Shown: positions 1 to 12,317 of the stretch, piece by piece
How positions within the stretch are numbered: position 1 is the first letter of the stretch
Layout of the letters: each line of letters starts with the position of its first letter
IMG/VR virus record: IMGVR_UViG_2802429246_000010
Span: 1-12,317 of that record
Direction: 5' to 3' (one strand)
Source: a virus
Taxonomy: Duplodnaviria > Heunggongvirae > Uroviricota > Caudoviricetes
Length of the DNA: 12,317 bases
The notes under the pieces: generated by a model
The model's input: only the letters and a program-made list of their open reading frames with translations
The model's database searches: none
Told to the model about the DNA's origin: nothing
Made by a program: the position numbers and the translations under genes

Positions 1-1632
1 ATGGTAACTCGGACAATGCAACAAAAGTATGATCGTGTTTTATCTGGCGAATCCCATCCATTCCCTGGCATATACGAGGCGGTTTCCGAACAACTCCTTT
101 TGCTCATCTTTAAGGCTCGTCAGCTATATCAGAATCCAGAATATCGCCCCTGGTTTGAAGAACAGCACAGAGTTCTCTCTGCATTACGTGCTAATACAGA
201 GCTCTTGAGAATATTTAGAGAACAAAGAAACGCGGAAGAACCAGAGCTTATTATTAAAGAATCTACATTACCCCTACTCACTAATTCTAATCTTACAGAT
301 GCGCTTAATATTATGTGCCATTTATACAATGGTTTTGATGAAGGAAATATCAGTCTGAAAACCTGGGGGGCGATGCAAGAGGTACAGACAACATCAACCT
401 TTATCAGCCCGGGACCGAGAACCTGGAAAACACCTGAACTGGCAAAGTTTGTAGGAGATGATTTATTTAATATTCTGACTGAATGTAAAGCCTGGAGTTC
501 ACCAATTCCAGCAGAAACCCGACAGGGCTATTGCCATCAGGATCTGTCTGTTGCACACTCCTGCACCTCAGAGTTACTGGCACACCTGAATCAATACCAT
601 GAAATTGATGAATCAGCAATACTTGCCAGAGTTATTGGTATGACGGTTAACGGATTCTACAAGAAAAATAATACAGACCTCCCAGAATGGCTATCCCCCT
701 TTAAAGAGGAACATAAAATATTCAGAGATTGTCTGGAGCAAAAGACCGAGGATGTAATCAGACTGAAAGAACAACTGTTGAAAACAGGACGTTCAGAATT
801 CGTGAATAATTTGTGTCGGGTCGCCAACTGGTATGAAATTAAGTCAATATACGATGAATATGTCCGTCTTTATGCCAATGAAATCATTGGTTGGTTCAAC
901 AAAACCATGGAATATTTTAAACCAACAGATTTTATCCGATATACATGGAAATTCGCAACAGTTACTCCAGGTAAAGAGACAGAAACCAAGCATACAACTG
1001 CATGGGAAAAGGATTATTGCCAGATAACTATACAACGTGATGAACTTCTGAGATTGATTCACACGAATACCCTTCAGGATGCAGTAATTTATCTTTGCCA
1101 TTGTCTGCAGAAGAAATACAAGAAATCATCCCAAAATGAGATAGAGTTTCCAGGAATAAAACCTCCGGCATCAGAGAGTGAAATTAATATAACAGATAGT
1201 TTTGAATTTTATTCTCTCCTGGAGCTCAGTAAAGATAATGAGAGACGGCTGGAAACATTTCAAAAATGGTATGAAAAAAATAAAGTTTTGTTAGAAAGTC
1301 ATAAACAAAAACGAACAGAGAAGATTGACGTTGCCGTACGACTTGTAGGGCTGAAAGCCTATGATCTGCATGAAGGGATTCCGGATAGTCCAAAACGAAA
1401 AGTTAAAGATGGCATAAATGAAGACATCAAAGCCGATACCAGTTTACGCCTGCCAAAGACAAATATAAGTGATACGTCGCTAAACCGTTATCGCCGCACT
1501 GTTAAGGAGATTATCAATAACGAAATCGACGCATTCCTGTTGGAACAGAAGAAAAAAAATAAAAGATTTCCCTACAGTGAAGATAGAGATGTGATTCGAC
1601 CTTTATGGGGAAAATGCCTGACCGGGCAGTAG
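1..1632 (+). CDS. hypothetical protein (543 aa), AT-rich accessory/cargo gene; ATG sits at position 1 so the true 5' end may lie beyond the window
   Basis: Uninterrupted 1632-nt ORF with coding-like amino-acid composition; noticeably more AT-rich than the rest of the window; followed by a hairpin terminator; no motif I can recognise by eye. Confidence 0.5.
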   Translation: MVTRTMQQKYDRVLSGESHPFPGIYEAVSEQLLLLIFKARQLYQNPEYRPWFEEQHRVLSALRANTELLRIFREQRNAEEPELIIKESTLPLLTNSNLTDALNIMCHLYNGFDEGNISLKTWGAMQEVQTTSTFISPGPRTWKTPELAKFVGDDLFNILTECKAWSSPIPAETRQGYCHQDLSVAHSCTSELLAHLNQYHEIDESAILARVIGMTVNGFYKKNNTDLPEWLSPFKEEHKIFRDCLEQKTEDVIRLKEQLLKTGRSEFVNNLCRVANWYEIKSIYDEYVRLYANEIIGWFNKTMEYFKPTDFIRYTWKFATVTPGKETETKHTTAWEKDYCQITIQRDELLRLIHTNTLQDAVIYLCHCLQKKYKKSSQNEIEFPGIKPPASESEINITDSFEFYSLLELSKDNERRLETFQKWYEKNKVLLESHKQKRTEKIDVAVRLVGLKAYDLHEGIPDSPKRKVKDGINEDIKADTSLRLPKTNISDTSLNRYRRTVKEIINNEIDAFLLEQKKKNKRFPYSEDRDVIRPLWGKCLTGQ

Positions 1633-1640
1633 ATCACTGA

Positions 1641-1676
1641 GGGGATAACAGCCCGGTTATCCCCTGTTTGTTCTGC
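1641..1676 (+). terminator. rho-independent terminator downstream of the 543-aa ORF
   Basis: 9-bp stem GGGGATAAC (1641-1649) / GTTATCCCC (1656-1664) with 6-nt loop, followed by TGTTTGTTCTGC. Confidence 0.5.
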
Positions 1677-1718
1677 TTCAGGTTGCCAGAGCTCTAGGAA
1701 CACGAGGCAATCGGCAAA

Positions 1719-2315
1719 TTATGCGGCTTTTCCATTAACAGATTCGGCCACAAGAACGACAGTGTGTTTGTTTCGCTCAGGATGTTCACTCCAGATTTCT
1801 GATTCCGGGATGCTTTCCCCGTCATAACTGATCCGTTCGCCATCAAACGGGTAATACCGTGCGGAATCAGTATCTAAAATAAACACCTTCAGATTCGTTG
1901 AACGACGCGCAATATGCTGCCAGAGAGCTTTTCCTCCTTCATATTGCTCGTTATCACTTAATAGTACAACGCCCGCTTTTGTGACTATCGTTTCATAAAC
2001 AAACGTTGCAAGACCAACATCGCGTACAGCTCCATCGACAACAATCCCTTCAATCTGAGCAACATCCTGTTCTTCCCAGAATTTCTGGACAAACACGCCT
2101 TCAAGTCGGGGACGACGCTGAAGCTCCAGAGTGGCAACAACCTTATGGCGAACATCACCATCAATAACAGAAGGTGCAGCTTCGATTACCGCAGCAAACG
2201 GAGTCTTTGGATCCCAGATGATCTGGTAAAGCACGCCCTGAATAGTTACTCCATCCAGTATCGAAAAACGACGGGCTACAGTAGCAGGGGAGTAAGACAT
2301 TGGAATTACAGCCAT
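1719..2315 (-). CDS. hypothetical protein (198 aa from ATG at 2313-2315; the track ORF extends to an upstream GTG at 2345)
   Basis: ATG at 2315 is preceded on the minus strand by AGAGGGGA about 9 nt upstream; coding-like composition; about 100 bp downstream of the integrase on the same strand; no recognisable domain. Confidence 0.5.
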   Translation of the reverse strand: MAVIPMSYSPATVARRFSILDGVTIQGVLYQIIWDPKTPFAAVIEAAPSVIDGDVRHKVVATLELQRRPRLEGVFVQKFWEEQDVAQIEGIVVDGAVRDVGLATFVYETIVTKAGVVLLSDNEQYEGGKALWQHIARRSTNLKVFILDTDSARYYPFDGERISYDGESIPESEIWSEHPERNKHTVVLVAESVNGKAA

Positions 2316-2444
2316 TTTAGAATCCCCTCTGAGTAATACAGGCACGAAAATTTACCTCAATAATTATAGTAAACAATACCAGAGCCAGGCGCATCAACAA
2401 TACTCATCAATTGTACTCAAGTCGTACAACGATCAGGAACGCCC

Positions 2445-3761
2445 TCACCTTCTACCAAACAGATTAACAACATTATTACCTGTCTGCTGTTGGTGGTTAT
2501 TAACCCGGTCCTCCCAGATCTCAAGTGCTCTGCGTTTTTCTGGCAAATAATCGTATCGATCATAATGTTTTGAACTGACATCGTTCAACGCATGATTTTG
2601 AATACGATCGCGGATTTCCTTACTGATTCCAGCTTCTCCCATTAACGTTTTACAGGTCCGACGTAAGTCACGTGCTGTAAAAATTTTAAAGTCAGGATTA
2701 CAAGCCCGGAAATACATGATAGCGCGAGCCAGACTGTCCGTACGAACCGGACGCTTACCATTAGTCGAAAGCGGGAAAATGTAAGGGCTCGATTTTTCTT
2801 TTGTTAACTCCTGCACACAAGATAATTCCTGTAATGCTGATTCAGTCAACGGTATCAAATGTTCTCGCTTATTTTTAGAGACATCCGCAGTCACCAGCAG
2901 CGTTTTTTGCTGAAAATCAACATCACACCACTGACTGGCGATCATTTCGAAGGGACGTTGCCCCCCGGTATAGATACAGAATCGGATCAAATGTTGCATC
3001 AATAATCCAACGTTGGTTGCTTCAGCAAAATGTTCCATTAGAAAACGCAACTCTTCGAGTGTCAGCCAGGTGTCACCGACTTTTTCAGCAGATGACTGTT
3101 TCGGTATCACTGATACCGGATTGGCCTCCAGCCCAAAAGTAATCCCTACACTTGTGTTCATCGGATCGTTATCAGCTTTCAGACCATAGTTAAATGCAGC
3201 CATCAGGTAAGAACGGATCCGGTTAGAGTGAACCACTGCACCGCGCTGAATGATCCCGGCCAGGATATGTTTAATCTGTCCGGAAGTCACATCTTTAGCT
3301 TTAGTCTCACGGGGGATCACTGTATAGCATTCATTTTCAAGGCGTTTCAGAACATCCTGCCATGTTCTCTTATTATCAATTTTCATTTTGTTAACATAAC
3401 CATGAATCAATGCTTCAAATGAGCCCTGTGATTGATGGAGTTGTATCCGCTGCTGTTCTGCAAGCTGTTGTCGCTCCAGTTCTGTCTGGGGATCCTTTCC
3501 TTCAATGAGCCAGGCACCATACTTTTTTGCCAGTTCATTCGCTGTAGCCAGTTTCATCTCAGGCCATATACCCAATTGAATGAATCTTTCTTTTTTCCCT
3601 TTTTCCACGTAATAGCGGAAATAGAAAATTTTGCTGCCAGAAGACTGAACTTTGATGCCAAGTCGTCCAGTGCCACGTTGAGAACTGTTGCTCCAGACAT
3701 AGAACGATGTCTTTTTTGCTTTCAATGCTCGGATAGCTGTTTCAGTTAGATTGACGGCCAT
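2445..3761 (-). CDS. int: site-specific tyrosine recombinase (phage integrase), P4-type with N-terminal arm-binding domain
   Basis: 438 aa; N-terminus (LTETAIRALK...GSKIFYFRYY...ERFIQLGIWPEMKLATA) fits the P4-integrase N-terminal domain pattern; C-terminus has the R...H..R...Y arrangement (ARDLRRT...HALND...HYDRYDY); AAGAGG RBS about 5 nt upstream of ATG at 3761; lies next to a tRNA-derived att core. Confidence 0.9.
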   Translation of the reverse strand: MAVNLTETAIRALKAKKTSFYVWSNSSQRGTGRLGIKVQSSGSKIFYFRYYVEKGKKERFIQLGIWPEMKLATANELAKKYGAWLIEGKDPQTELERQQLAEQQRIQLHQSQGSFEALIHGYVNKMKIDNKRTWQDVLKRLENECYTVIPRETKAKDVTSGQIKHILAGIIQRGAVVHSNRIRSYLMAAFNYGLKADNDPMNTSVGITFGLEANPVSVIPKQSSAEKVGDTWLTLEELRFLMEHFAEATNVGLLMQHLIRFCIYTGGQRPFEMIASQWCDVDFQQKTLLVTADVSKNKREHLIPLTESALQELSCVQELTKEKSSPYIFPLSTNGKRPVRTDSLARAIMYFRACNPDFKIFTARDLRRTCKTLMGEAGISKEIRDRIQNHALNDVSSKHYDRYDYLPEKRRALEIWEDRVNNHQQQTGNNVVNLFGRR

Positions 3762-3808
3762 AGAACCTCTTTTCTAAACCAGTAACAATCAAAATAACTC
3801 GTAAATTT

Positions 3809-3831
3809 GGGTCAGGTAATGGGTCAGGTAA
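3809..3831. promoter_or_regulatory. tandem direct repeat GGGTCAGGTAA x2 (candidate integrase arm-type or accessory-protein site) in the int upstream region
   Basis: Exact 11-bp copies at 3809-3819 and 3821-3831 separated by 1 nt, between the int start codon and the tRNA-derived core; followed by ACAATTA-type AT-rich repeats (3900-3940). Confidence 0.3.
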
Positions 3832-3957
3832 CGATCGTACAATGGAGAAAAAACGGAACCAAGCGGAAACAGAAGCAATTACATAATTACTTGATTATAA
3901 ACAATTAATAAAACAATTACGAACAAACCAAAACAATATAGAATGGACTTGCCTCAT

Positions 3958-4004
3958 GACTCATAATCGCTTGGTCGTTGGTTCAAACCCAACAGGGGCC
4001 ACCA
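3958..4004 (+). other. att core remnant: 47-nt 3' fragment of a tRNA-Ile(CAU)-like gene (anticodon loop through CCA), truncated at the 5' side
   Basis: GACTCATAATCGCTTGGTCGTTGGTTCAAACCCAACAGGGGCCACCA closely matches the 3' part of enterobacterial ileX/ileY-type tRNA as I recall it, with compensatory T-stem changes (GTTGG/CCAAC); the upstream 30 nt cannot form an acceptor or D arm, so this is not a complete tRNA. Confidence 0.65.
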
Positions 4005-4560: not shown

Positions 4561-5103
4561 TTACTTGTCTTTATCCGGCTGAAACTTATCAGGCACATTT
4601 CCGGTAGTTTCCATCAGATAATCGGACAGCATTCGCGGGATGTTTTCATCAAGTTTTGTGCATGCGTTACAGGCTCTGACAACTTCTTTTTTCAGGCCAT
4701 CCAGCATGACGGGGGTCATCTGTGGGAAGCTCCTTTGCATAGTAAGCGGCAGGCTGTCCATGATTGATGAAATCTGACTCGCCAGTTTTGAAAGCGCGTA
4801 CATGCAAAACTCTGTATCAATCACGTCACCGCGATCGCGCTCGTTTTTAAGTTCCTGCGCCTCCGCCTGTGCTGTCAGTAATCTGATCCTGACTCGTAAG
4901 AGTTCATCATCATCAATCTCGCCTTTGTCGTTTGTAAGCTGGCTAATTGCATTGTTAACCCTATTGTCTATCACGCTGGCAACATCATAAAACGCCTCAC
5001 GGCCTTTACGTTCAACGGGAGTCACTCCCCACTTGTCGAATGCTGTAGCACTTACCCGGCAGCTTTGCGCCATGGTTTTTTTGTTCATCAGGTGCGATTT
5101 CAT
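4561..5103 (-). CDS. terminase small subunit, lambda Nu1-like (N-terminal winged-HTH cosB-binding type)
   Basis: 180 aa from ATG at 5103 (lambda Nu1 is 181 aa); collinear similarity to lambda Nu1 along the whole length, e.g. LTAQAEAQELKNERD..DTEFCMYALSKLASQISSIMDSLPLTMQRSFP...LDENIPRMLSDYLMETTG against lambda LTRAQADAQELKNARD..ETAFCTFVLSRIAGEIASILDGLPLSVQRRFP...LDELIPGLLSEYIEQSG; a lambda-like cos lies directly upstream. Start is ambiguous (ATG 5103 or ATG 5085). Confidence 0.8.
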   Translation of the reverse strand: MKSHLMNKKTMAQSCRVSATAFDKWGVTPVERKGREAFYDVASVIDNRVNNAISQLTNDKGEIDDDELLRVRIRLLTAQAEAQELKNERDRGDVIDTEFCMYALSKLASQISSIMDSLPLTMQRSFPQMTPVMLDGLKKEVVRACNACTKLDENIPRMLSDYLMETTGNVPDKFQPDKDK

Positions 5104-5109
5104 CAATAT

Positions 5110-5300
5110 CCCAACTTGGTCAAGGTTTCAGGTTGGTGTGTTGGTGTTATCTTTCCCTTTTTATTCATGGAGATAGAGCAAACAACAAAACCACCACCAC
5201 CACCCTGAAAAAGCTCATAAATAGCGAAAAACCGCGAGGTCGCCGCCCCGTAGCCTACCGGATCGCCGGAAAGGACCCGCCAGCCAGAACGGGCCCTAAT
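5110..5300 (-). other. lambda-type cohesive-end site (cos); cosN 12-nt overhang sequence at 5237-5248, diverged cosB-side region 5110-5214
   Basis: Minus strand reads GGGCGGCGACCTCGCGGTTTTTCGCTATTTATGA (plus 5215-5248), matching the lambda left end GGGCGGCGACCTCGCGGGTTTTCGCTATTTATGA at 33 of 34 positions including the full cohesive-end 12-mer; sequence then diverges from lambda before the Nu1-like start. Confidence 0.8.
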
Positions 5301-5304
5301 TTCA

Positions 5305-5688
5305 TCAACCAATCAACTTATAGCGACCATCCCGTGCATTGCGGCGTACACGCTCAATCTTGAGGCATAGCGCCGCATCTGGCTTTTTTGGGACAGGTAC
5401 GCGGCAATATTCAGAAGCTCGAGGAATATTGTTTATCCAGTCGATCACTTCGCTTAAATACCAGGCCTTACGCCCTTCCGTAACCTGTACGCGTTCGGGG
5501 AACTCTCCGCGAGCCTCAAGGTTTAGCAATGTGCGACGGCTAAGGGTAGTAAGTTCCATCACCTGATTCATATCAACAAGGCGTTCACTTAAACGCATTT
5601 TGTCAGCAATAGCCTTTAATTCCTCTACTGCTGGATCCGGATACATCATTTCGGCAATTGGCTTAAGGTCATTGTAATGATTCTGCAT
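5305..5688 (-). CDS. AlpA/Vis-family HTH DNA-binding protein (127 aa, with an N-terminal extension of about 30 aa)
   Basis: Core RLVDMNQVMELTTLSRRTLLNLEARGEFPERVQVTEGRKAWYLSEVIDWINN fits the AlpA pattern; AGGGGGA RBS 5-6 nt upstream of ATG at 5688; stop lies about 57 bp from cosN. Confidence 0.7.
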   Translation of the reverse strand: MQNHYNDLKPIAEMMYPDPAVEELKAIADKMRLSERLVDMNQVMELTTLSRRTLLNLEARGEFPERVQVTEGRKAWYLSEVIDWINNIPRASEYCRVPVPKKPDAALCLKIERVRRNARDGRYKLIG

Positions 5689-5699
5689 TGTATCCCCCT

Positions 5700-6041
5700 T
5701 TACACACGAGCCAGCGGCTGAACAGAAATACCTGAGCCAACAAACGCGGCAACCTTTGCCGACAGTTCTTTTACAGACTCAGGCCAGTTCAGAGCATCAA
5801 CATTTAAAACACCTGTCTTATAAACCTGTGCCTGTGTTTTTTTCGCTGTGTCGATTTGTACAGCGGAAACATAAACCGCTTTGCCTGCGCTCGTTCCATC
5901 CCATACCACTAGCGCACCAGTTGCATCTTCCTGCATCAGTGGCGTAAACGCAGGTATTACCCCTTTATTGGCTGAAAATATCCCCAGCGTAGTAACCAGT
6001 GCTTCAGTGCCAGACATGAGTTCAGTGTAATGAGTAGCCAT
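5700..6041 (-). CDS. head decoration protein, lambda gpD-like
   Basis: 113 aa; TPLMQEDATGALVVWDGTSAGKAVYVSAVQIDTAKKTQAQVYKTGVLNVDALNWPE...AFVGSGISV aligns with lambda gpD [55 protein letters not shown]...AFAGTAISIV; AAGGGGGAG RBS overlaps the stop of the upstream capsid gene. Confidence 0.8.
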   Translation of the reverse strand: MATHYTELMSGTEALVTTLGIFSANKGVIPAFTPLMQEDATGALVVWDGTSAGKAVYVSAVQIDTAKKTQAQVYKTGVLNVDALNWPESVKELSAKVAAFVGSGISVQPLARV

Positions 6042-6050
6042 TGCTCCCCC

Positions 6051-7097
6051 TTAGCCAATGCGAACGGTAACAAAACGATTGATGCGGGCCGGTATTGGCT
6101 GTGGTGCTGAATGTGTCTGCACATATTCAATAGCCGGATCACCAGGCACAATATAGTTTTTCGGTGCAAGTTCGGCTTTAGTCAGCCCCATCCGAATTAG
6201 CTCCGGATCCTGAATACCGCCATAAGCGACAATCCCCTGAAGAGCCGTATTGCCAAGCACCATCAAATCAGGATCAAGGAAATATTTTTCAGTTCCGTCC
6301 TCGTCGGTATAACGCCCGCTGTAAACAACAATCGCAACATCGCCCATATACCCTTTAAAACTCACCGAATCACCAAGGTCTTTAAGGGCCGTTTCCAGTT
6401 CGGAATTAGAACCACGACGGGTATCCAGAGCCTCTTTTATCGCTCTGAATGAACGGTATTTCTTCCATACATTACCGCCCATAATGATGATATTAGTGAC
6501 GCCCTCACTAAATTCTGCGTAGCTCTCAATATCATCATTTGGATCAAAAGTTTCTTTATCCTTACCTGACCACTCAGCACCGCCAGACTGCGTGATAATA
6601 TTTTGTGGTTTTATATTCCAGTCCAGTTCATAACGTTCAATACCATCGCCCTCAATGATATTTTTCCCCGTTGTGATTGCCTGAACAGCAAGCCATTCAA
6701 TACGTGCACGTATAGCTTTAGCCTGATTTACAATCGCCTGTTTAACTTTAATATTACGCGCCCCAAAAGCATTGTATTGTTCAGGTGATACACCAGCAGG
6801 GCGCACAGCTAACTTATTTGGATCAATGCTGCTTTTCGGTTTCATATAGCCAGGGCGAATTGTTTTTGATTCGTATCCCTCATCTCGTGAAACTTTACTG
6901 CCCACCATAGGAGAGCAAAACGCCGCGATCGGGATATTTGGATCGTCGATCGTATCAAGAATAATGTCTCTCGATTCAAACATTACCGAGCGAGTGAAAA
7001 ACAAACTGGTAAACAACGCATTTAATTTTTTTTGCACATCTTCAGCATTAGCCACCTGCACAAGCTGTGTAGGCGAATATAAATCAACCATACTCAT
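6051..7097 (-). CDS. major capsid protein, lambda gpE-like (start at ATG 7097 or 7091; track ORF extends to 7178)
   Basis: Strong collinear similarity to lambda gpE, e.g. ITQSGGAEWSGKDKETFDPNDDIESYA...YRSFRAIKEALDTRRGSNSELETALKDLGDSVSFKGYMGDVAIVVYSG...MVLGNT...GDPA against lambda ITQSGGTEWSKRDKSTYDPTDDIEAYA...FRSFKAVKEKLDTRRGSNSELETAVKDLGKAVSYKGMYGDVAIVVYSG...MVLGNT...GDPA; N-terminus MSMVDLYSPTQL parallels lambda MSMYTTAQLL; AAAGAGG RBS just upstream. Confidence 0.85.
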   Translation of the reverse strand: MSMVDLYSPTQLVQVANAEDVQKKLNALFTSLFFTRSVMFESRDIILDTIDDPNIPIAAFCSPMVGSKVSRDEGYESKTIRPGYMKPKSSIDPNKLAVRPAGVSPEQYNAFGARNIKVKQAIVNQAKAIRARIEWLAVQAITTGKNIIEGDGIERYELDWNIKPQNIITQSGGAEWSGKDKETFDPNDDIESYAEFSEGVTNIIIMGGNVWKKYRSFRAIKEALDTRRGSNSELETALKDLGDSVSFKGYMGDVAIVVYSGRYTDEDGTEKYFLDPDLMVLGNTALQGIVAYGGIQDPELIRMGLTKAELAPKNYIVPGDPAIEYVQTHSAPQPIPARINRFVTVRIG

Positions 7098-7262
7098 CCT
7101 CTTTACATTCATTACAAATAATTGTGAATATATTCTATTACCGATGTCTGCTATGCGAATACATGCAACCAAGTGCAATGTTGTATAAAATATGCCGTGA
7201 CAACTTCAGTGCTGATAATTCGTGTTAATGTATTTACTTCCTTTGGTCGGGATTTATGTAGC

Positions 7263-7302
7263 ATGCCGGAAAATCTATTTTTTTCCGGCATCTTTTTGTT
7301 TG
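7263..7302 (+). terminator. strong hairpin plus T-tract (terminator-like, plus-strand orientation) upstream of the capsid gene
   Basis: 11-bp stem ATGCCGGAAAA (7263-7273) / TTTTCCGGCAT (7281-7291), 7-nt loop, then CTTTTTGTTTG. Orientation is antisense to the surrounding minus-strand genes, so its function is uncertain. Confidence 0.35.
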
Positions 7303-7375
7303 CAGAATTTAAAACGGTATATTATCGCCGTACGGATCATCATTCCCCGACTGTTGTTTTGCCCTGTTCAGTGCG

Positions 7376-7732
7376 TCAGTGGCCTGCCCCTGCTGGCCTT
7401 TTTTTGCCGCCCGGTCGCGCCGTTCGCGCACTGATTACGCTGTCTGCGATAACCTGCCAGCCCTGCCGCGTTTCGCCGTTCTGGCCTGTCCACTGGCTTA
7501 CCTGCATGTTACCCGCCACGCTCACCAGTTCGCCTTTGTGGTGTTTTGCCAGTGCGTCGGCCTGTCTGCCAAACGCCAGGACGGATAACCACATCGTCGC
7601 CGTTCCGTCATCTGCCTGGCTGCACGGAAGGGGGACCGCCATACTAGCCATCGCCATTTGTGTACCCTTGCTGGTGGTCTTTAACTGCGGGTCAGCCACC
7701 AGCCGTCCGTAAGCCGCTATCTGTGCTGTCAT
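7376..7732 (-). CDS. single-stranded-DNA-binding-like OB-fold protein (118 aa) with a basic C-terminal tail
   Basis: Pattern YGRLVADPQL...TMWLSVLAFGRQADALAKHHKGELVSVAGNMQVSQWTGQNGETRQGWQVIADSV parallels E. coli SSB (VGNLGQDPEV...[52 protein letters not shown]); GGAGAG RBS; ATGA start/stop overlap with the upstream gene. Confidence 0.5.
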   Translation of the reverse strand: MTAQIAAYGRLVADPQLKTTSKGTQMAMASMAVPLPCSQADDGTATMWLSVLAFGRQADALAKHHKGELVSVAGNMQVSQWTGQNGETRQGWQVIADSVISARTARPGGKKRPAGAGH

Positions 7733-7971
7733 GCTGTCTGCTCTCCGGTTTTAACGTTGATGGTTGTTACCTGTTCCGCTTCGGCAATCTCCCGTTCTGT
7801 CATCGTGGCAAAGTTTGCAGCTGCCGTTGTCATGAATGCGCTAATCAGTTCGGGATGTGCTTTCGCATATCCTTCCCCGGCGTTGCGGTCGATGATTTTT
7901 ATCGCCACTCTCAGCCAGTGCTCTGTAAGGTCAATAGCGCGGTAGTGTGGTTGTTTGCGGTTTGCCTTCAT
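7729..7971 (-). CDS. hypothetical protein (80 aa)
   Basis: ORF whose stop overlaps the start of the SSB-like gene (ATGA); coding-like composition; weak RBS; first gene after the iteron origin. Confidence 0.5.
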   Translation of the reverse strand: MKANRKQPHYRAIDLTEHWLRVAIKIIDRNAGEGYAKAHPELISAFMTTAAANFATMTEREIAEAEQVTTINVKTGEQTA

Positions 7972-8011
7972 AGTTCAGATCTCAATTTTTCGTATATATA
8001 TACAAAACAGT

Positions 8012-8334
8012 GCGGGTTATGCGGGTTAGCGGGTTAGCGGGTTATCTTCGCTTGCTAAGTATTTTTTATTCATTAATATCAATACATTACAAAATTAACT
8101 GTTTACTGTTTAGCCGTGGCGTAACCCGCAAAATGCTCAAAATAACCCGCAAACGGGGTTTTTTCTGCGGGTTACGCGTGGCTGTTTGCTGTCACTTCCT
8201 GTTATTCATCTGCGGGTTATAATCGCACTTTTGTGGGTTATAACTGCCGTTTTGCGGGTTACGTGCGGGTTATTGATTTCCTTTTTATTCATGCAGTTAA
8301 TGCACTTATACACAGAGTAACCCACATAACCCGC
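8012..8334. repeat. iteron-type replication origin: about 13 copies of GCGGGTTA (both orientations) flanking an AT-rich unwinding stretch
   Basis: Four tandem copies at 8012-8044; reverse copies TAACCCGC at 8122-8129, 8143-8150, 8327-8334; forward copies at 8167-8174, 8212-8219, 8254-8261, 8265-8272; variants GTGGGTTA (8233-8240) and TAACCCAC (8318-8325); AT-rich segment 8050-8110; located immediately downstream of the replication gene. Confidence 0.75.
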
Positions 8335-8357
8335 AACTTTTCACCTCACACAGGGGG

Positions 8358-10481
8358 TTAATCTTCTGCCTCAGGCTGGAACATCAGCACGTAAAAAACA
8401 TGCTGCTTCCCCCCAATTTTGCCGAGAGCCTTTTTCTTGTAACGGCGATCGTTACCCGCTTCCAGCATTCCGGCAGCACTCAACGCGCGGGCAAAGTGGG
8501 ACGGGTTAAATCCCTGTGCGATCTCCCCCTCAAACACATGAGGAAACGTGTAAAAACGGAACTCATCATCTTCATTTCTGATACTCCCCTTTCTGTATCC
8601 GGCAAGGTCTTTAATCGGTAAATCACGTTCATCACTGTTTGGGTAAGGAAGGTATCGACTGAACCCGAACGACGACAAAAACGCCTCAGCCTGTTCAACC
8701 ATCTGTTTAAATTCCCTGTTACCCGTGCCGAACTCCTTCACCCAGGCATTAAAGTTATGCTGTATTGCGTCCCGGCATTCCTGCGCGGCCCAGCCAGTTA
8801 CATGACCGGAAAGCACAAGCGCGGCCTCCAGTATGGCGAAACGCTCACCCACGCGGTGGACCTGCTCGCCGTAGCTCTCCGGTATCAGGTTGCGCCACCG
8901 TTCGCGGCATTCCCTTACCGTATCCTTTGCCTCCTGCTGGTGGCCTGCCAGCCATTTAACCCACTCACGACCCGCTGCCCCGTGATTTTCTGTCCAGGCA
9001 TCCTTTAACGCGTCTGCGTGCGCCTTTCCGGTGCTGTATTCGTGAAAGTGCGTGGCTTTTTCCATCGGAACGTTAAGCAGGCGGACAAGCTGCCCCGCTT
9101 TGACTTTTATCCCCTCCGTTTTGAGGAATGTCTCAACGTCCATTTCTCCGGTGCTGATTGCCACCGTGCGCCAGTGTTTTATCTCCCGGTTGCCGCCGTC
9201 CTTCGCCCCCTGTAATTTCCCGGAACCGTTAAACAACGTATAGGCTGACGTGGACACCTCCCGCGCGTTTCCGGCCTGGCCTATTTCATCCAGGGGTAAC
9301 AGCCCGTCGTTGTGCGCCTCTGCCTCGTTAGCGATACCTAACGCTGTGCCGTACCAGGTCAGCCGTTGTGCGTCCGGCTCTCCCCATAAACTTGATGCGA
9401 TGTTCTGCGTGGTGGTTTTCCCTGCCGATGACTGTTCGAAAAGATGTACCCCGAAGCCGTCAGCACCAACAAGGCCAATCAAAGGTGCTGCCAGTGACGT
9501 GGCAACACCCAGCATCATGGACGGATTGCCACCAGCCAGCCGCGCCACGCAGTCGCGCCAGCCCTCCGACGTACCCGCAACCGAATAGCCATTAACAGTG
9601 GCACTTTTTCCGGTAAACAGGATCGGTTTTTCAGAATCACCAATGATTGAGCCGTCCGGCATGATATACGCGCCAAAATGCCAGCCCGTTGTTGTGCTTA
9701 GCTGCCATTCCTCATGGCTTCCGCTTAACTGCATCCAGTCAGCCAGGATAGCCCTGTATTTGCCGTTTGTTGTCACGTTCAGCCCGTGATCTTTAAGCAA
9801 CCGCCAGCCGTCACGGTCGCCAATGCCACCACACGGGATCGCCATTGTGATGACTTCATGGTTTGCTAATTTTTTCCAGCGCATCACGCGGTAATGCTCT
9901 TTACCGATCGTCCCTGTTCCCAGTAGTTCAAGCGGAGAACATAACCACGTCTCAGGCCGGATAATTTCGCCTGACTGCTTATCCACTTTGGGCGTTACCC
10001 AGAAAACACCATCGACGCGACTTTCAACGCGGGGCTTTAATTCATCATCCTGATAGCATGGCTCTTTTTTCTTTACAGGCAGTTCAACTACCTTTTTCTT
10101 TTCCGCCTGCTCTGCCCGTTCACGTTCCAGATATTCACGCCAGTTCTCCCGTTTCTGGCTGTGCATTCCTTCAGGGTAATAATCAGCATCCCTGACACCT
10201 GCCGCTGCCAGTTTCTGCCCGATGGTATTAACAAGCCCCGGACGCAATAACCCCGCCTGATAGAGACGCACGCGATAGCGTCCGTCCGGTACGATTTGCA
10301 GGTTGTCCAGTTCGGCAAGTTGTTGCTCTCCAAGCCAGACAGGAGGCACGTTATCGCCAGCCAGTCGCCCGTCCTGTTCCTGCCACTGCTTCGCATGTGC
10401 CCACGCATCACTACCCGCAAAAATGATGACTTCCGTCATTTTGTCACGTGGCTGGTGTTTTAAATTTGGCGCTTTTTTCAT
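8358..10481 (-). CDS. replication initiator, primase/helicase-like P-loop NTPase (707 aa from ATG at 10481)
   Basis: Large ORF with Walker A-like SSAGKTT and Walker B-like LLPLDEIG motifs; GGAGAGAG RBS upstream of ATG at 10481; start overlaps the stop of the upstream gene (ATGA); cognate iterons immediately downstream. Family assignment is by context and motifs, not by confirmed homology. Confidence 0.8.
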   Translation of the reverse strand: MKKAPNLKHQPRDKMTEVIIFAGSDAWAHAKQWQEQDGRLAGDNVPPVWLGEQQLAELDNLQIVPDGRYRVRLYQAGLLRPGLVNTIGQKLAAAGVRDADYYPEGMHSQKRENWREYLERERAEQAEKKKVVELPVKKKEPCYQDDELKPRVESRVDGVFWVTPKVDKQSGEIIRPETWLCSPLELLGTGTIGKEHYRVMRWKKLANHEVITMAIPCGGIGDRDGWRLLKDHGLNVTTNGKYRAILADWMQLSGSHEEWQLSTTTGWHFGAYIMPDGSIIGDSEKPILFTGKSATVNGYSVAGTSEGWRDCVARLAGGNPSMMLGVATSLAAPLIGLVGADGFGVHLFEQSSAGKTTTQNIASSLWGEPDAQRLTWYGTALGIANEAEAHNDGLLPLDEIGQAGNAREVSTSAYTLFNGSGKLQGAKDGGNREIKHWRTVAISTGEMDVETFLKTEGIKVKAGQLVRLLNVPMEKATHFHEYSTGKAHADALKDAWTENHGAAGREWVKWLAGHQQEAKDTVRECRERWRNLIPESYGEQVHRVGERFAILEAALVLSGHVTGWAAQECRDAIQHNFNAWVKEFGTGNREFKQMVEQAEAFLSSFGFSRYLPYPNSDERDLPIKDLAGYRKGSIRNEDDEFRFYTFPHVFEGEIAQGFNPSHFARALSAAGMLEAGNDRRYKKKALGKIGGKQHVFYVLMFQPEAED

Positions 10482-10777
10482 TTCTGCTCTCTCCACGCGG
10501 CAATCATGTTTTTCAGTTCCTGTAGTTTTTTATCCACATTCACACGTGACACATGGTTATTTCTGGAAAGCGGGATTTCCCGCCTGAATCTGCTAATAAA
10601 GATCTCCACGTTCAGCGAACTATGAAATGAATAGCCATCACGAATAAAATACACACGGTCAAACATTATCGATTTTACTGTTACTCTGTTGCCGTTCTTA
10701 TCCCGATAAATAGCGCCGGGGATAATTTTGGGATGTGCATAACCGCTGGCAGTCAAGCCAGATAAATACGTTCTCAT
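10478..10777 (-). CDS. hypothetical protein (99 aa), translationally coupled to the replication gene
   Basis: ATG at 10777 with GGGGA upstream; stop overlaps the primase start codon. Confidence 0.55.
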   Translation of the reverse strand: MRTYLSGLTASGYAHPKIIPGAIYRDKNGNRVTVKSIMFDRVYFIRDGYSFHSSLNVEIFISRFRREIPLSRNNHVSRVNVDKKLQELKNMIAAWREQK

Positions 10778-10783
10778 GATTAT

Positions 10784-11104
10784 TTATCCCCGATTTGAAT
10801 CAGTATTCGCTTTCTTTATGGCATTTAATGCATCTGTGGCATTTTCAATGGTGCACCGTAACGAAATATCAAAATGTCCAAGCATTGCCAGTAACAAACC
10901 GATATTACCCATATCAATGCGCATGGCCTTTTCGTCATAGTCCTCATTTTCTGACGCATGCCACATCAGGCTACCAATTGACGCAACGGCCATTGATATA
11001 TTGTCAGTCGCCCCATCCGCAGCGGAATAAACCTTTTTAGCAATATCATGCTCACAGTTAAAATGCGGATTAATCAGGTACTGGTAATTTGACATATCAG
11101 GCAT
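10784..11104 (-). CDS. hypothetical protein (106 aa)
   Basis: ATG at 11104 with AGGGGG RBS 7 nt upstream; coding-like composition; start overlaps the end of the upstream small gene. Confidence 0.6.
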   Translation of the reverse strand: MPDMSNYQYLINPHFNCEHDIAKKVYSAADGATDNISMAVASIGSLMWHASENEDYDEKAMRIDMGNIGLLLAMLGHFDISLRCTIENATDALNAIKKANTDSNRG

Positions 11105-11300
11105 GGCACACCCCCTGACGAATACGGGCGGCGAATACCATCACGCAGCCAGCCGGGGATTGCTGGCGTGCTTCCTGTTCGCTGGTGGCCACGATGGTAA
11201 TCACACGCGGTTTTGCGGCGCTCAGGGCGATAAAACGCCAGGCGAATTTATTCAGGTTGTGCGAATCCCGCCCTTGCGGGTGTATGGTATGATTTCTCAT
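11097..11300 (-). CDS. small protein (67 aa), possibly Icd-like (P4-type host cell division inhibitor family); first gene of the leftward operon
   Basis: ATG at 11300 with GAGG 6 nt upstream; MRNHTIHPQGRDSHNLNKFAWRFIALSAAKPRVITIVATSEQEARQQSPAGCVMVFAARIRQGVCHA; the FAWRF...EAR...FAAR pattern recalls Icd-like proteins (from memory, unverified). It is the only coding-like stretch of the otherwise implausible 334-aa track ORF. Confidence 0.45.
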   Translation of the reverse strand: MRNHTIHPQGRDSHNLNKFAWRFIALSAAKPRVITIVATSEQEARQQSPAGCVMVFAARIRQGVCHA

Positions 11301-11337
11301 AGCTACCTCGATACTCTCGTTATCGTTGGTGGTTAGA

Positions 11338-11383
11338 AGCCCTGCGAGTGGTAACGACACTTGCGGGGCTTTGTTTTTTGTTG
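11338..11383 (+). terminator. hairpin plus T-tract (terminator-like, plus-strand orientation) in the divergent regulatory region
   Basis: 11-bp stem AGCCCTGCGAG (11338-11348) / CTTGCGGGGCT (11360-11370) with two G-U pairs, 11-nt loop, followed by TTGTTTTTTGTTG. Confidence 0.3.
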
Positions 11384-11396
11384 CACTTACTGTTAA

Positions 11397-11440
11397 TGTA
11401 CGTACGTAATATTGATGATAATAGGAGTTACGTACGTACA
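11397..11440. promoter_or_regulatory. twin operator: two copies of the self-complementary 10-mer TACGTACGTA (13-bp inverted repeats TGTACGTACGTAA / TTACGTACGTACA) 30 bp apart
   Basis: Copies at 11399-11408 and 11429-11438; the second lies between an AGGAG (11423-11427) and the ATG of the RHH gene; a TAATAT -10-like hexamer sits between the two copies. Confidence 0.5.
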
Positions 11441-11631
11441 TGTCAACATTAAAGCGGGATAAATCACCACGCGGCGAGGGATGGTCGCCGACATTCCAGA
11501 TACGAATTAGCAAAGAACTACGCCAGCAAGTAAACGAGGCAGCAACCGCCGATGGCCTAACCCTCGGCAATTGGTTTAAAGAATTAGCTCGTGCCGAACT
11601 AAAGCGACGTGGCATTGAACCTAAAGGCTGA
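11440..11631 (+). CDS. ribbon-helix-helix (CopG/Arc-like) DNA-binding regulator (63 aa)
   Basis: FQIRISKELRQQVNEAATADGLTLGNWFKELARAEL fits a beta-strand/helix/helix RHH pattern; the gene begins directly after the palindromic operators and is divergent from the replication operon. Confidence 0.55.
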   Translation: MSTLKRDKSPRGEGWSPTFQIRISKELRQQVNEAATADGLTLGNWFKELARAELKRRGIEPKG

Positions 11632-11634
11632 TGT

Positions 11635-11760
11635 ATGACTGAAAAGCAGACCGATAACAAACTTTCTCTACCAGAGAATAAACCAGCAGGCTTCTTACCA
11701 AGAAAAATCCTTGATGAGATCAAACGCCGCCAGCGGCGCAAGGCCAAAGAGCTGGAGTAA
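11635..11760 (+). CDS. small basic ORF (41 aa), not in the supplied track
   Basis: ATG 4 nt after the RHH stop with AAGG upstream; MTEKQTDNKLSLPENKPAGFLPRKILDEIKRRQRRKAKELE; plausible but too short to judge by composition. Confidence 0.3.
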   Translation: MTEKQTDNKLSLPENKPAGFLPRKILDEIKRRQRRKAKELE

Positions 11761-11817
11761 CCATCACCAGCGCCGTGGTGCGGTGAACTGTGGCGCACAG
11801 GGTTACAGGTATCTACG

Positions 11818-11997
11818 ATGACTGACAAATCATTAAAGAAATTATCCTCATCCAAGAAAAAACAACGCAAAAATGCGGTAAACGAACATGAACCGGAGAG
11901 ATTCGCACCATGTGCGTTTATCCTTGAGAAGTACCTTAAAGAGTATTCTAGGAAAATACGCTCATTGCAGGCATGGCAGCGAATCGAGCCAGACTGA
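11818..11997 (+). CDS. small basic ORF (59 aa), not in the supplied track
   Basis: ATG at 11818; MTDKSLKKLSSSKKKQRKNAVNEHEPERFAPCAFILEKYLKEYSRKIRSLQAWQRIEPD; N-terminus resembles the 41-aa ORF (MT-D/E-K); weak RBS. Confidence 0.25.
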   Translation: MTDKSLKKLSSSKKKQRKNAVNEHEPERFAPCAFILEKYLKEYSRKIRSLQAWQRIEPD

Positions 11998-12107
11998 TAG
12001 CATTGCCCACCAGCCAACAACCTGGTATTCTGGATATGCTCAAGTTTAGTGTTATGCCACTGGCGGCCCTCTGCGGTCGCCTTTGTTTTATGTGCCATCA
12101 CTCCCCC

Positions 12108-12317
12108 TTACACCGTCTGCGTTCTGCGAGTGGATGCAAGATAAGCATCGAGATCAGTGCGCATATACAGCACTTTGCGCCCCAGCTTATGGAAAGGGAT
12201 TTTTACCTTGCCAGTACAGGCCCAGTTCGCCAGCGTTTGATTGTTAACGCCAAGGTAGGCAGCAGCTTCAGCACGTGTAAGGCGGTCAGTTGATAAATCA
12301 GATTTCTTTAAATTCAT
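12108..12317 (-). CDS. excisionase/AlpA-family HTH DNA-binding protein (69 aa; start codon at the window edge, so it may extend upstream)
   Basis: LTRAEAAAYLGVNNQTLANW...GKVKIPFHKLGRKVLYMRTDLDAYLA matches the excisionase-type HTH pattern; position and orientation suggest an int-alpA-type pair with an integrase beyond the window edge. Confidence 0.7.
   Translation of the reverse strand: MNLKKSDLSTDRLTRAEAAAYLGVNNQTLANWACTGKVKIPFHKLGRKVLYMRTDLDAYLASTRRTQTV

Follow-up and report, generated by a model that had tools for sequence, protein, structure and literature searches.

A one-nucleotide homopolymer insertion sets the terminus of an ssb gene in a PICI-type satellite of Escherichia coli

Gram-negative PICIs are described by a shared gene content, that is, an integrase, AlpA, a primase with a downstream origin of replication (ori), unidirectional genes, a length of 10-20 kb and, often, a captured capsid gene (PMC10111431). 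In these satellites the ori lies downstream of pri, and 'Primase, SSB and DUF5906' share one replication category (PMC10111431). Capsid genes are common, being present in 21 of 29 reference PICIs, but transfer can do without them (PMC10111431). SSB goes unmentioned in the PICI paper of Fillol-Salom 2019.

Single-stranded DNA-binding proteins (SSBs) are best approached here through the SSB of the E. coli chromosome. The nine residues at its C-terminal tip, MDFDDDIPF, form the principal contact with over 17 partner proteins, and function in vivo requires at least two tails per tetramer (PMC7145534).

In this work, we focus on an ssb gene in a 12,317-nucleotide stretch of DNA from a viral sequence record, which we call the window (i.e. 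the whole stretch that was analysed). A preliminary description, made from the sequence alone, had presented the product as an SSB-like OB-fold protein with a basic rather than acidic C-terminal tail, and had suggested a satellite-specific ssDNA-binding factor or something that interferes with helper or host SSB interactions. Our analysis leads to a more ordinary reading. The gene is very probably the ssb of a PICI replication module (a DUF927 primase-helicase, an iteron origin, orf80 and ssb), carried here as a frameshift mutant allele in which a run of six adenines (A6) has become a run of seven (A7).

The satellite and its replication module

Judged from its genes, the element is a Gram-negative PICI-type satellite residing in an E. 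coli chromosome, and its gene content is that listed for the group in PMC10111431. The origin from a phage satellite, already supposed in the preliminary description, is borne out by the PICI-type genes that surround ssb. The main features around that gene are as follows (the ssb locus itself is given in the next section).

4561-5106, minus strand: Nu1-like small terminase gene (profile match)
5305-5688, minus strand: AlpA gene (profile match)
5700-6041, minus strand: gpD-like decoration protein gene (profile match)
6051-7178, minus strand: lambda gpE-like major capsid gene (profile match)
7729-7971, minus strand: orf80, encoding 80 aa, PHROG 1231
8012-8334, no strand assigned: iteron cluster, 11 exact copies of GCGGGTTA in both orientations, filling the gap between the primase gene and orf80
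8358-10496, minus strand: DUF927 primase/helicase gene (satellite replicase; PF06048, E 3.7e-47; PHROG 1139 DNA primase, E 6e-180)

All the genes from 4561 to 12317 lie on the minus strand. They begin with an HTH gene, an Icd-like zone, a DUF4222 gene and the DUF927 primase-helicase gene, and after the primase come the iterons, orf80, ssb, the gpE-like capsid gene, the gpD-like decoration gene, alpA and the Nu1-like small terminase gene (TerS). The satellite has capsid, decoration and small terminase genes, and is without portal, protease and large terminase genes. Its 477-aa integrase falls just outside the end of the window, as seen in near-identical loci (e.g. L008, 99.9% identical).

The iterons occupy the 386-bp gap between the DUF927 primase gene and the orf80-ssb pair. 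The 11 exact copies of GCGGGTTA, all inside 8012-8334, compare with 0.29 expected by chance, and degenerate copies are present too; this cluster is likely the satellite's replication origin. The neighbouring orf80 has no Pfam or NCBIfam match. Its stop codon overlaps the ssb start as ATGA, and the two genes are probably translationally coupled. Moreover, the pair is kept in an island with a swapped primase (L009, which has D5_N/Pox_D5 together with the same 81-aa ORF and ssb). Because the pair outlasts a change of primase family, orf80 may be a partner of the SSB or of replication.

Scanning the whole window against Rfam at gathering thresholds gave no match, which includes the absence of a P4-like C4/isrK immunity RNA and of anything overlapping ssb, and a tRNA scan of the window found none. 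The PICI boundary is near 3958-4004, within a tRNA gene fragment (47 nt from the 3' part; anticodon CAU). ARAGORN classes this tRNA as tRNA-Met, and it is probably ileX; at the same boundary, L008 has a complete tRNA followed by mug. Positions 1-3957 of the window belong instead to a second island, with a 438-aa integrase (2445-3761), a 208-aa PHROG 7522 protein and a 543-aa hypothetical protein. A single tRNA site in the window therefore holds two tandem elements, an arrangement shared with strain A36. At the opposite end, a 334-aa minus-strand ORF at 11097-12101 is probably spurious. The A36 counterpart carries, in the PGAP annotation, a short Icd-like cell-division-inhibitor gene plus ORFs of 63 and 41 aa on the opposite strand, and the segment corresponds to the island's variable regulatory zone.

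An OB-fold protein and its displaced acidic tail

The ssb locus consists of the truncated ORF, the homopolymer at which its frame changes, and the native end of the gene downstream.

7376-7732, minus strand: truncated ssb ORF with an ATG start, 118 aa and a premature TGA (OB-fold in residues 1 to about 104, native linker to K111, then the out-of-frame residues RPAGAGH)
7399-7405, minus strand: homopolymer A7 (T7 on the plus strand), the frameshift site; A6 in intact alleles
7309-7398, minus strand: displaced native 3' end of ssb, out of frame, with 29 intact codons and TAA, encoding GQQGQATDALNRAKQQSGNDDPYGDNIPF*
7263-7291, no strand assigned: hairpin of 11 base pairs, about 18 nt 3' of the native full-length stop

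The ORF was confirmed at the position given in the preliminary description, on the minus strand and with 118 aa. Its C-terminal end is ...ARTARPGGKKRPAGAGH, also quoted as ...SVISARTARPGGKKRPAGAGH, the same as in that description. The product matches PF00436 in Pfam (E 2.8e-16; 59.9 bits vs a cutoff of 26), PHROG 44, 'single strand DNA binding protein' (E 1e-34), and TIGR00621 in NCBIfam, where it reaches 55.8 bits vs a cutoff of 53.95 and the intact relative P0007 reaches 61 bits. Solved SSB sequences match it as well, with a best E of 2.8e-10. An AlphaFold2 model, for which the input alignment held 16 sequences, has a mean pLDDT of 84 and shows six beta-strands and one helix in the OB-fold pattern, with residues 105-118 predicted to be disordered (pLDDT <50). 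When this model was compared with the PDB using Foldseek, the best 50 matches were all SSB, SsbA or SsbB chains (E 1e-9 to 1e-7).

Identity to E. coli SSB is 26% over 100 residues. In this alignment, three of the four ssDNA-stacking aromatics appear to be kept (W54, F60 and W88 of E. coli correspond to W48, F54 and W81 of the ORF), the position of W40 is taken by Q39, and that of the tetramerization residue H55 by L49. Taken together, the profile matches and the predicted structure place the 118-aa product, far beyond chance, as a genuine SSB-family OB-fold protein. The OB fold proposed in the preliminary description is thus upheld by PF00436, TIGR00621, PHROG 44, AlphaFold2 and Foldseek, and structure prediction, which it had named among the checks that could overturn the proposal, returned the fold. 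The comparison with PriB that it had also put forward falls away. Only SSB models were matched by the ORF in the Pfam and NCBIfam profile scans, with no match to the PriB family, and a PriB identity is ruled out.

As encoded, the ORF is without the acidic SSB-Ct tip (...D-D-I-P-F). In intact alleles, the tract is A6 and forms the codons AAA AAA (K110 and K111); on the coding strand it is flanked by GGCGGC before the A run and GGCCAGCA after it. Removing one A from the A7 of the window yields a 140-aa protein that ends in ...GQQGQATDALNRAKQQSGNDDPYGDNIPF, with the tip DDPYGDNIPF. The displaced stretch at 7309-7398 encodes a disordered linker and a canonical acidic SSB-Ct tip, and a 40-aa ORF in the other frame (7309-7431), reading ...KKGQQGQATDALNRAKQQSGNDDPYGDNIPF*, carries this native tail. 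Over 95 nt the displaced tail is identical to A6 alleles and without disabling mutations. The hairpin beyond it, terminator-like on the plus strand only, marks the natural end of the ssb gene. The ORF therefore ends without an acidic tip because one extra A shifts the frame, and its unusual terminus is set by a one-nucleotide homopolymer insertion, from A6 to A7. Within the 17-residue tail quoted in the preliminary description, ARTARPGGKK is native to every family member and only the last seven residues (RPAGAGH) derive from the frameshift.

This reading of the terminus agrees with the relatives of the protein. A homology search returned 765 of them, almost all from E. coli. The close relatives (76-100% identical; almost entirely E. 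coli, with a few other enterobacteria) carry the RefSeq name 'single-stranded DNA-binding protein', align with the initial 94% of the query and have 136-149 aa, vs 118 here. They read ...ARTARPGGKKGQQGQATDALNRAKQQSGNDDPYGDNIPF, that is, they run beyond the end of the query through a short linker to an acidic SSB tip, for which the family consensus is DDPYGDxIPF. Intact relatives such as P0007 (140 aa), P0005 (141 aa), P0004 (136 aa), P0091 and P0094, among others, end in [DE]x[IL]PF. Scored as a terminal [DEN]x[ILV]PF, the tip is present in 123 of the 151 family sequences that were fetched; the other 28 are mostly partial sequences at contig ends, tip variants (ISF, LSF, APF) or frameshifts at the same tract. 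The preliminary description was right that no acidic tip is encoded in the frame of the ORF; the basic tail, however, is a product of the frameshift, and the family's own tip is canonical and acidic.

A tblastn search of deposited phage genomes found no close relative, all matches being below 30% identity and mostly from Firmicute phages. The satellite ssb thus appears to form a subfamily that the searched set of deposited phages lacks and that, in this analysis, occurs in islands alone.

The A7 allele and how it may be read

A36, AR_0077 and F374, the three complete genomes of E. coli closest to the window, all have A7, and in each of them PGAP/RefSeq names the product 'single-stranded DNA-binding protein, frameshifted' and flags the gene as a pseudogene. 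The annotated span of 424 nt equals window positions 7309-7732. Four other close genomes have A6 and an annotated intact 140-aa protein, WP_000126634.1. Among the loci compared, A7 is found in the window, L001, L002, L005 and L008-L017, and A6 in L003, L004, L006 and L007. Of 5426 complete E. coli genomes, 3 contain the exact 81-mer around the tract with A7, and 52 contain its exact 80-mer counterpart with A6 and identical flanks. The exact 118-aa product is present on 26 contigs and in 73 index blocks, among them a metagenome and numerous draft assemblies of independent origin; out of the 73 index blocks, at least 10 more independent assemblies (draft or metagenome) were read and have A7.

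An error of sequencing or assembly, in which the extra A would be a homopolymer miscall and the real gene intact, is scarcely tenable: long-read platforms err most often by homopolymer indels, the displaced tail is without a flaw and metagenome contigs with the other A7 allele break just past the tract region, but seven bases are short for systematic miscalling, and the identical A7 in three complete genomes, produced in different countries by different laboratories, plus at least 10 other assemblies, rules out error as the sole explanation. Since it recurs in these complete genomes and in many independent assemblies, A7 is a genuine inherited minority allele and not a one-off miscall.

The allele has several backgrounds. 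One island with A7 sits beside the ileX tRNA gene, between nfeF and mug; another, with a different integrase, lies between clpS and cspD; and A7 is also found in one island with a D5-type primase replacing DUF927. In total, there are at least two different integrases and integration sites and two primase modules, while the TerS-to-ssb blocks that carry A7 diverge from the window by 0 to 1.5%. The allele has persisted or spread slightly more than a dead gene would, which fits dispensability, and the spread would also fit a truncated form that is tolerated or mildly useful.

Comparison of more distant alleles shows that the tract is a recurrent indel hotspot. A second, independent A7 is found in L018/L019, whose protein is only 84% identical and ends in RSTGPGY, and an A5 allele (L020) ends in ...KKANRGRPLTH. 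Between the two A7 alleles, the shifted-frame tails (RPAGAGH vs RSTGPGY) differ at 4 of 7 residues, and the native frame (GQQGQATD vs GQQDQATD) at 1 of 8. Conservation of the native frame but not of the shifted tails indicates that selection acted on the native frame.

Within the A7 alleles related to the window, the displaced tail shows 0 differences over 95 nt where about 1.4 would be expected at the largest background divergence, a comparison with no power; the lack of disabling mutations means that decay is not demonstrable, yet no more than about 1.4 changes are expected over this length. In L016, which has A7, there is one substitution about 10 nt past the tract (CCA to CCT), which is synonymous in the shifted frame but exchanges Q for L in the native one; it is a single event and too little to interpret. 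Separately, a sister allele group has N-terminally truncated SSBs of 90 aa (P0135) and 61 aa (P0139), on 130 and 8 contigs, respectively. N-terminal truncation indicates a second, more widespread route to the inactivation of satellite ssb.

Taking the gene as a frameshifted PICI ssb, the course of events can be proposed as follows. The normal protein, of 136-149 aa, consists of the OB-fold, a short disordered linker (about 25-35 aa) that begins with basic residues (RPGGKK...) and the acidic tip DDPYGDNIPF. By analogy with E. coli SSB, the intact island protein would coat single-stranded satellite DNA during helper-induced replication, and through its tip it would bring in SSB-interacting proteins of the host and possibly the replicase of the island. 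In the window, an extra A in the AAA AAA lysine codons replaces the last 29 residues with seven unrelated ones (RPAGAGH) and an early stop. The truncated product should still fold and probably binds ssDNA, but would not recruit partners through the tip. In this form, the A7 ssb is most readily taken as a recent pseudogene or a hypomorph whose loss of the tail the island would tolerate, presumably because the host SSB substitutes.

The alternative that survives best is leaky or programmed recoding, through +1 ribosomal slippage at AAA-AGG-C or through RNA polymerase slippage on A7. Such slippage would produce mostly tail-less SSB and a few percent of full-length, tipped SSB. The site has some of the right ingredients: a shifty lysine codon in the P site is followed in the A site by the rare codon AGG, and the +1 frame offers the abundant codon GGC. 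Past the tract, this +1 frame is fully open and identical to functional alleles. The yeast Ty1 frameshift site, CUU-AGG-C, resembles AAA-AGG-C. Precedents in the literature are a one-nucleotide insertion in E. coli rpoB that is suppressed at 5% by +1 slippage at CCC-AGG (PMC10861913) and the recognized class of 'savior indels' accompanied by low-level compensatory frameshifting (PMC5009743); a literature search found no paper with the string 'AAA AGG' together with frameshifting. The site, on the other hand, has no stimulatory RNA structure around it (fold z-score 0.31, with 122 of 200 shuffles folding at least as well), and A6 is the ancestral and majority state, so that nothing here is 'programmed'; the A5 alleles that also exist call for a shift in the other direction. 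In addition, competent tetramers would be few if full-length protein made up only a few percent, given the requirement for at least two tails (PMC7145534). On balance, we consider recoding quite unlikely.

Were A7 nevertheless alive in this way, slippage would give mixed SSB tetramers, in which partner recruitment or the interference with the helper would be altered, and changes among A5, A6 and A7 would amount to a crude switch with on, off and low settings for the tip; we hold this to be very doubtful. Across the ssb family, the KK tract reads GGKK, GGRK, GGKR, GGKA, GGSRRK or GGNRRK. This lack of conservation argues against a maintained contingency switch, and there is no sign of selection for one.

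An SSB that evolved to be tail-less or basic-tailed is very unlikely too. Such a protein would be the satellite's own factor for binding ssDNA; alternatively, it would take up ssDNA or poison tetramers while attracting no partners, and in this way interfere with the SSB hubs of the helper or host. Natural tail-less paralogues do exist (B. subtilis SsbB, 3vdy, is among the sequence matches), the truncated product retains a confident OB fold and the allele persists across several island backgrounds. It is, however, a minority allele, in 3 complete genomes vs 52 that have A6 between the same flanks, and downstream the native tail has stayed intact. Moreover, frameshift alleles of independent origin have different seven-residue tails but a conserved native frame, loss of an A from the tract yields yet another junk tail, the lysine tract varies across the family, and other inactivating lesions of the gene are common. 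The basic tail, which the preliminary description took as a distinguishing and possibly adaptive feature, comes down to an A6-to-A7 allele that PGAP calls 'frameshifted' and whose shifted tail is unconserved. Nor did we find supporting evidence for the interference with helper or host SSB that it proposed; a truncated SSB could in principle interfere, but as a by-product of mutation.

Under the favoured reading of a frameshifted PICI ssb, the gene is of a known kind, an SSB of the PICI replication module with a canonical tip, and the exact lesion is already annotated as 'frameshifted' in RefSeq; in this sense it is ordinary. It does carry a caution: an odd protein terminus seen in a single sequence can be a one-nucleotide homopolymer indel, which close relatives resolve at once. 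In addition, the ssb of E. coli PICIs is often inactivated, by the A7 frameshift, by the A5 variant and by N-terminal truncations on more than 100 contigs. Such frequent inactivation suggests that the island can persist in the chromosome without the satellite SSB, or at any rate without the tip of this protein. If the truncated form were expressed and affected helper or host replication, it would be of modest interest to the phage-satellite field.

Comparison with described systems

PriB, encoded in the operon rpsF-priB-rpsR, is likewise an OB-fold protein of small size (about 104 aa) and has no acidic tip. Unlike priB, the ssb of the window lies in a satellite replication module, and its full-length family has a linker and a tip.

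A further comparison is with the tail-less SSBs, that is, B. subtilis SsbB and engineered C-terminal deletions of E. coli SSB, whose architecture, an OB fold without the SSB-Ct, the 118-aa product would share. Those proteins, however, are stable conserved forms or laboratory constructs, whereas the window has a recent minority frameshift allele. Another SsbB, that of Staphylococcus aureus (5yyu), is among the fold matches of the model.

With the chromosomal SSB of E. coli, the satellite family shares the OB-fold, and its intact members end in ...D-x-I-P-F, comparable to MDFDDDIPF in E. coli. The satellite proteins are much shorter, with a linker of about 27 aa vs 56 aa in E. coli, and in the window copy the tip is out of frame. 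The nearest counterparts are the SSB genes of Gram-negative PICIs (PMC10111431), with which the locus has in common AlpA, a primase (DUF927 or D5-type), an ori after pri, an SSB and captured late genes. From these, the window copy differs by a one-nucleotide insertion that removes the linker and the acidic tip.
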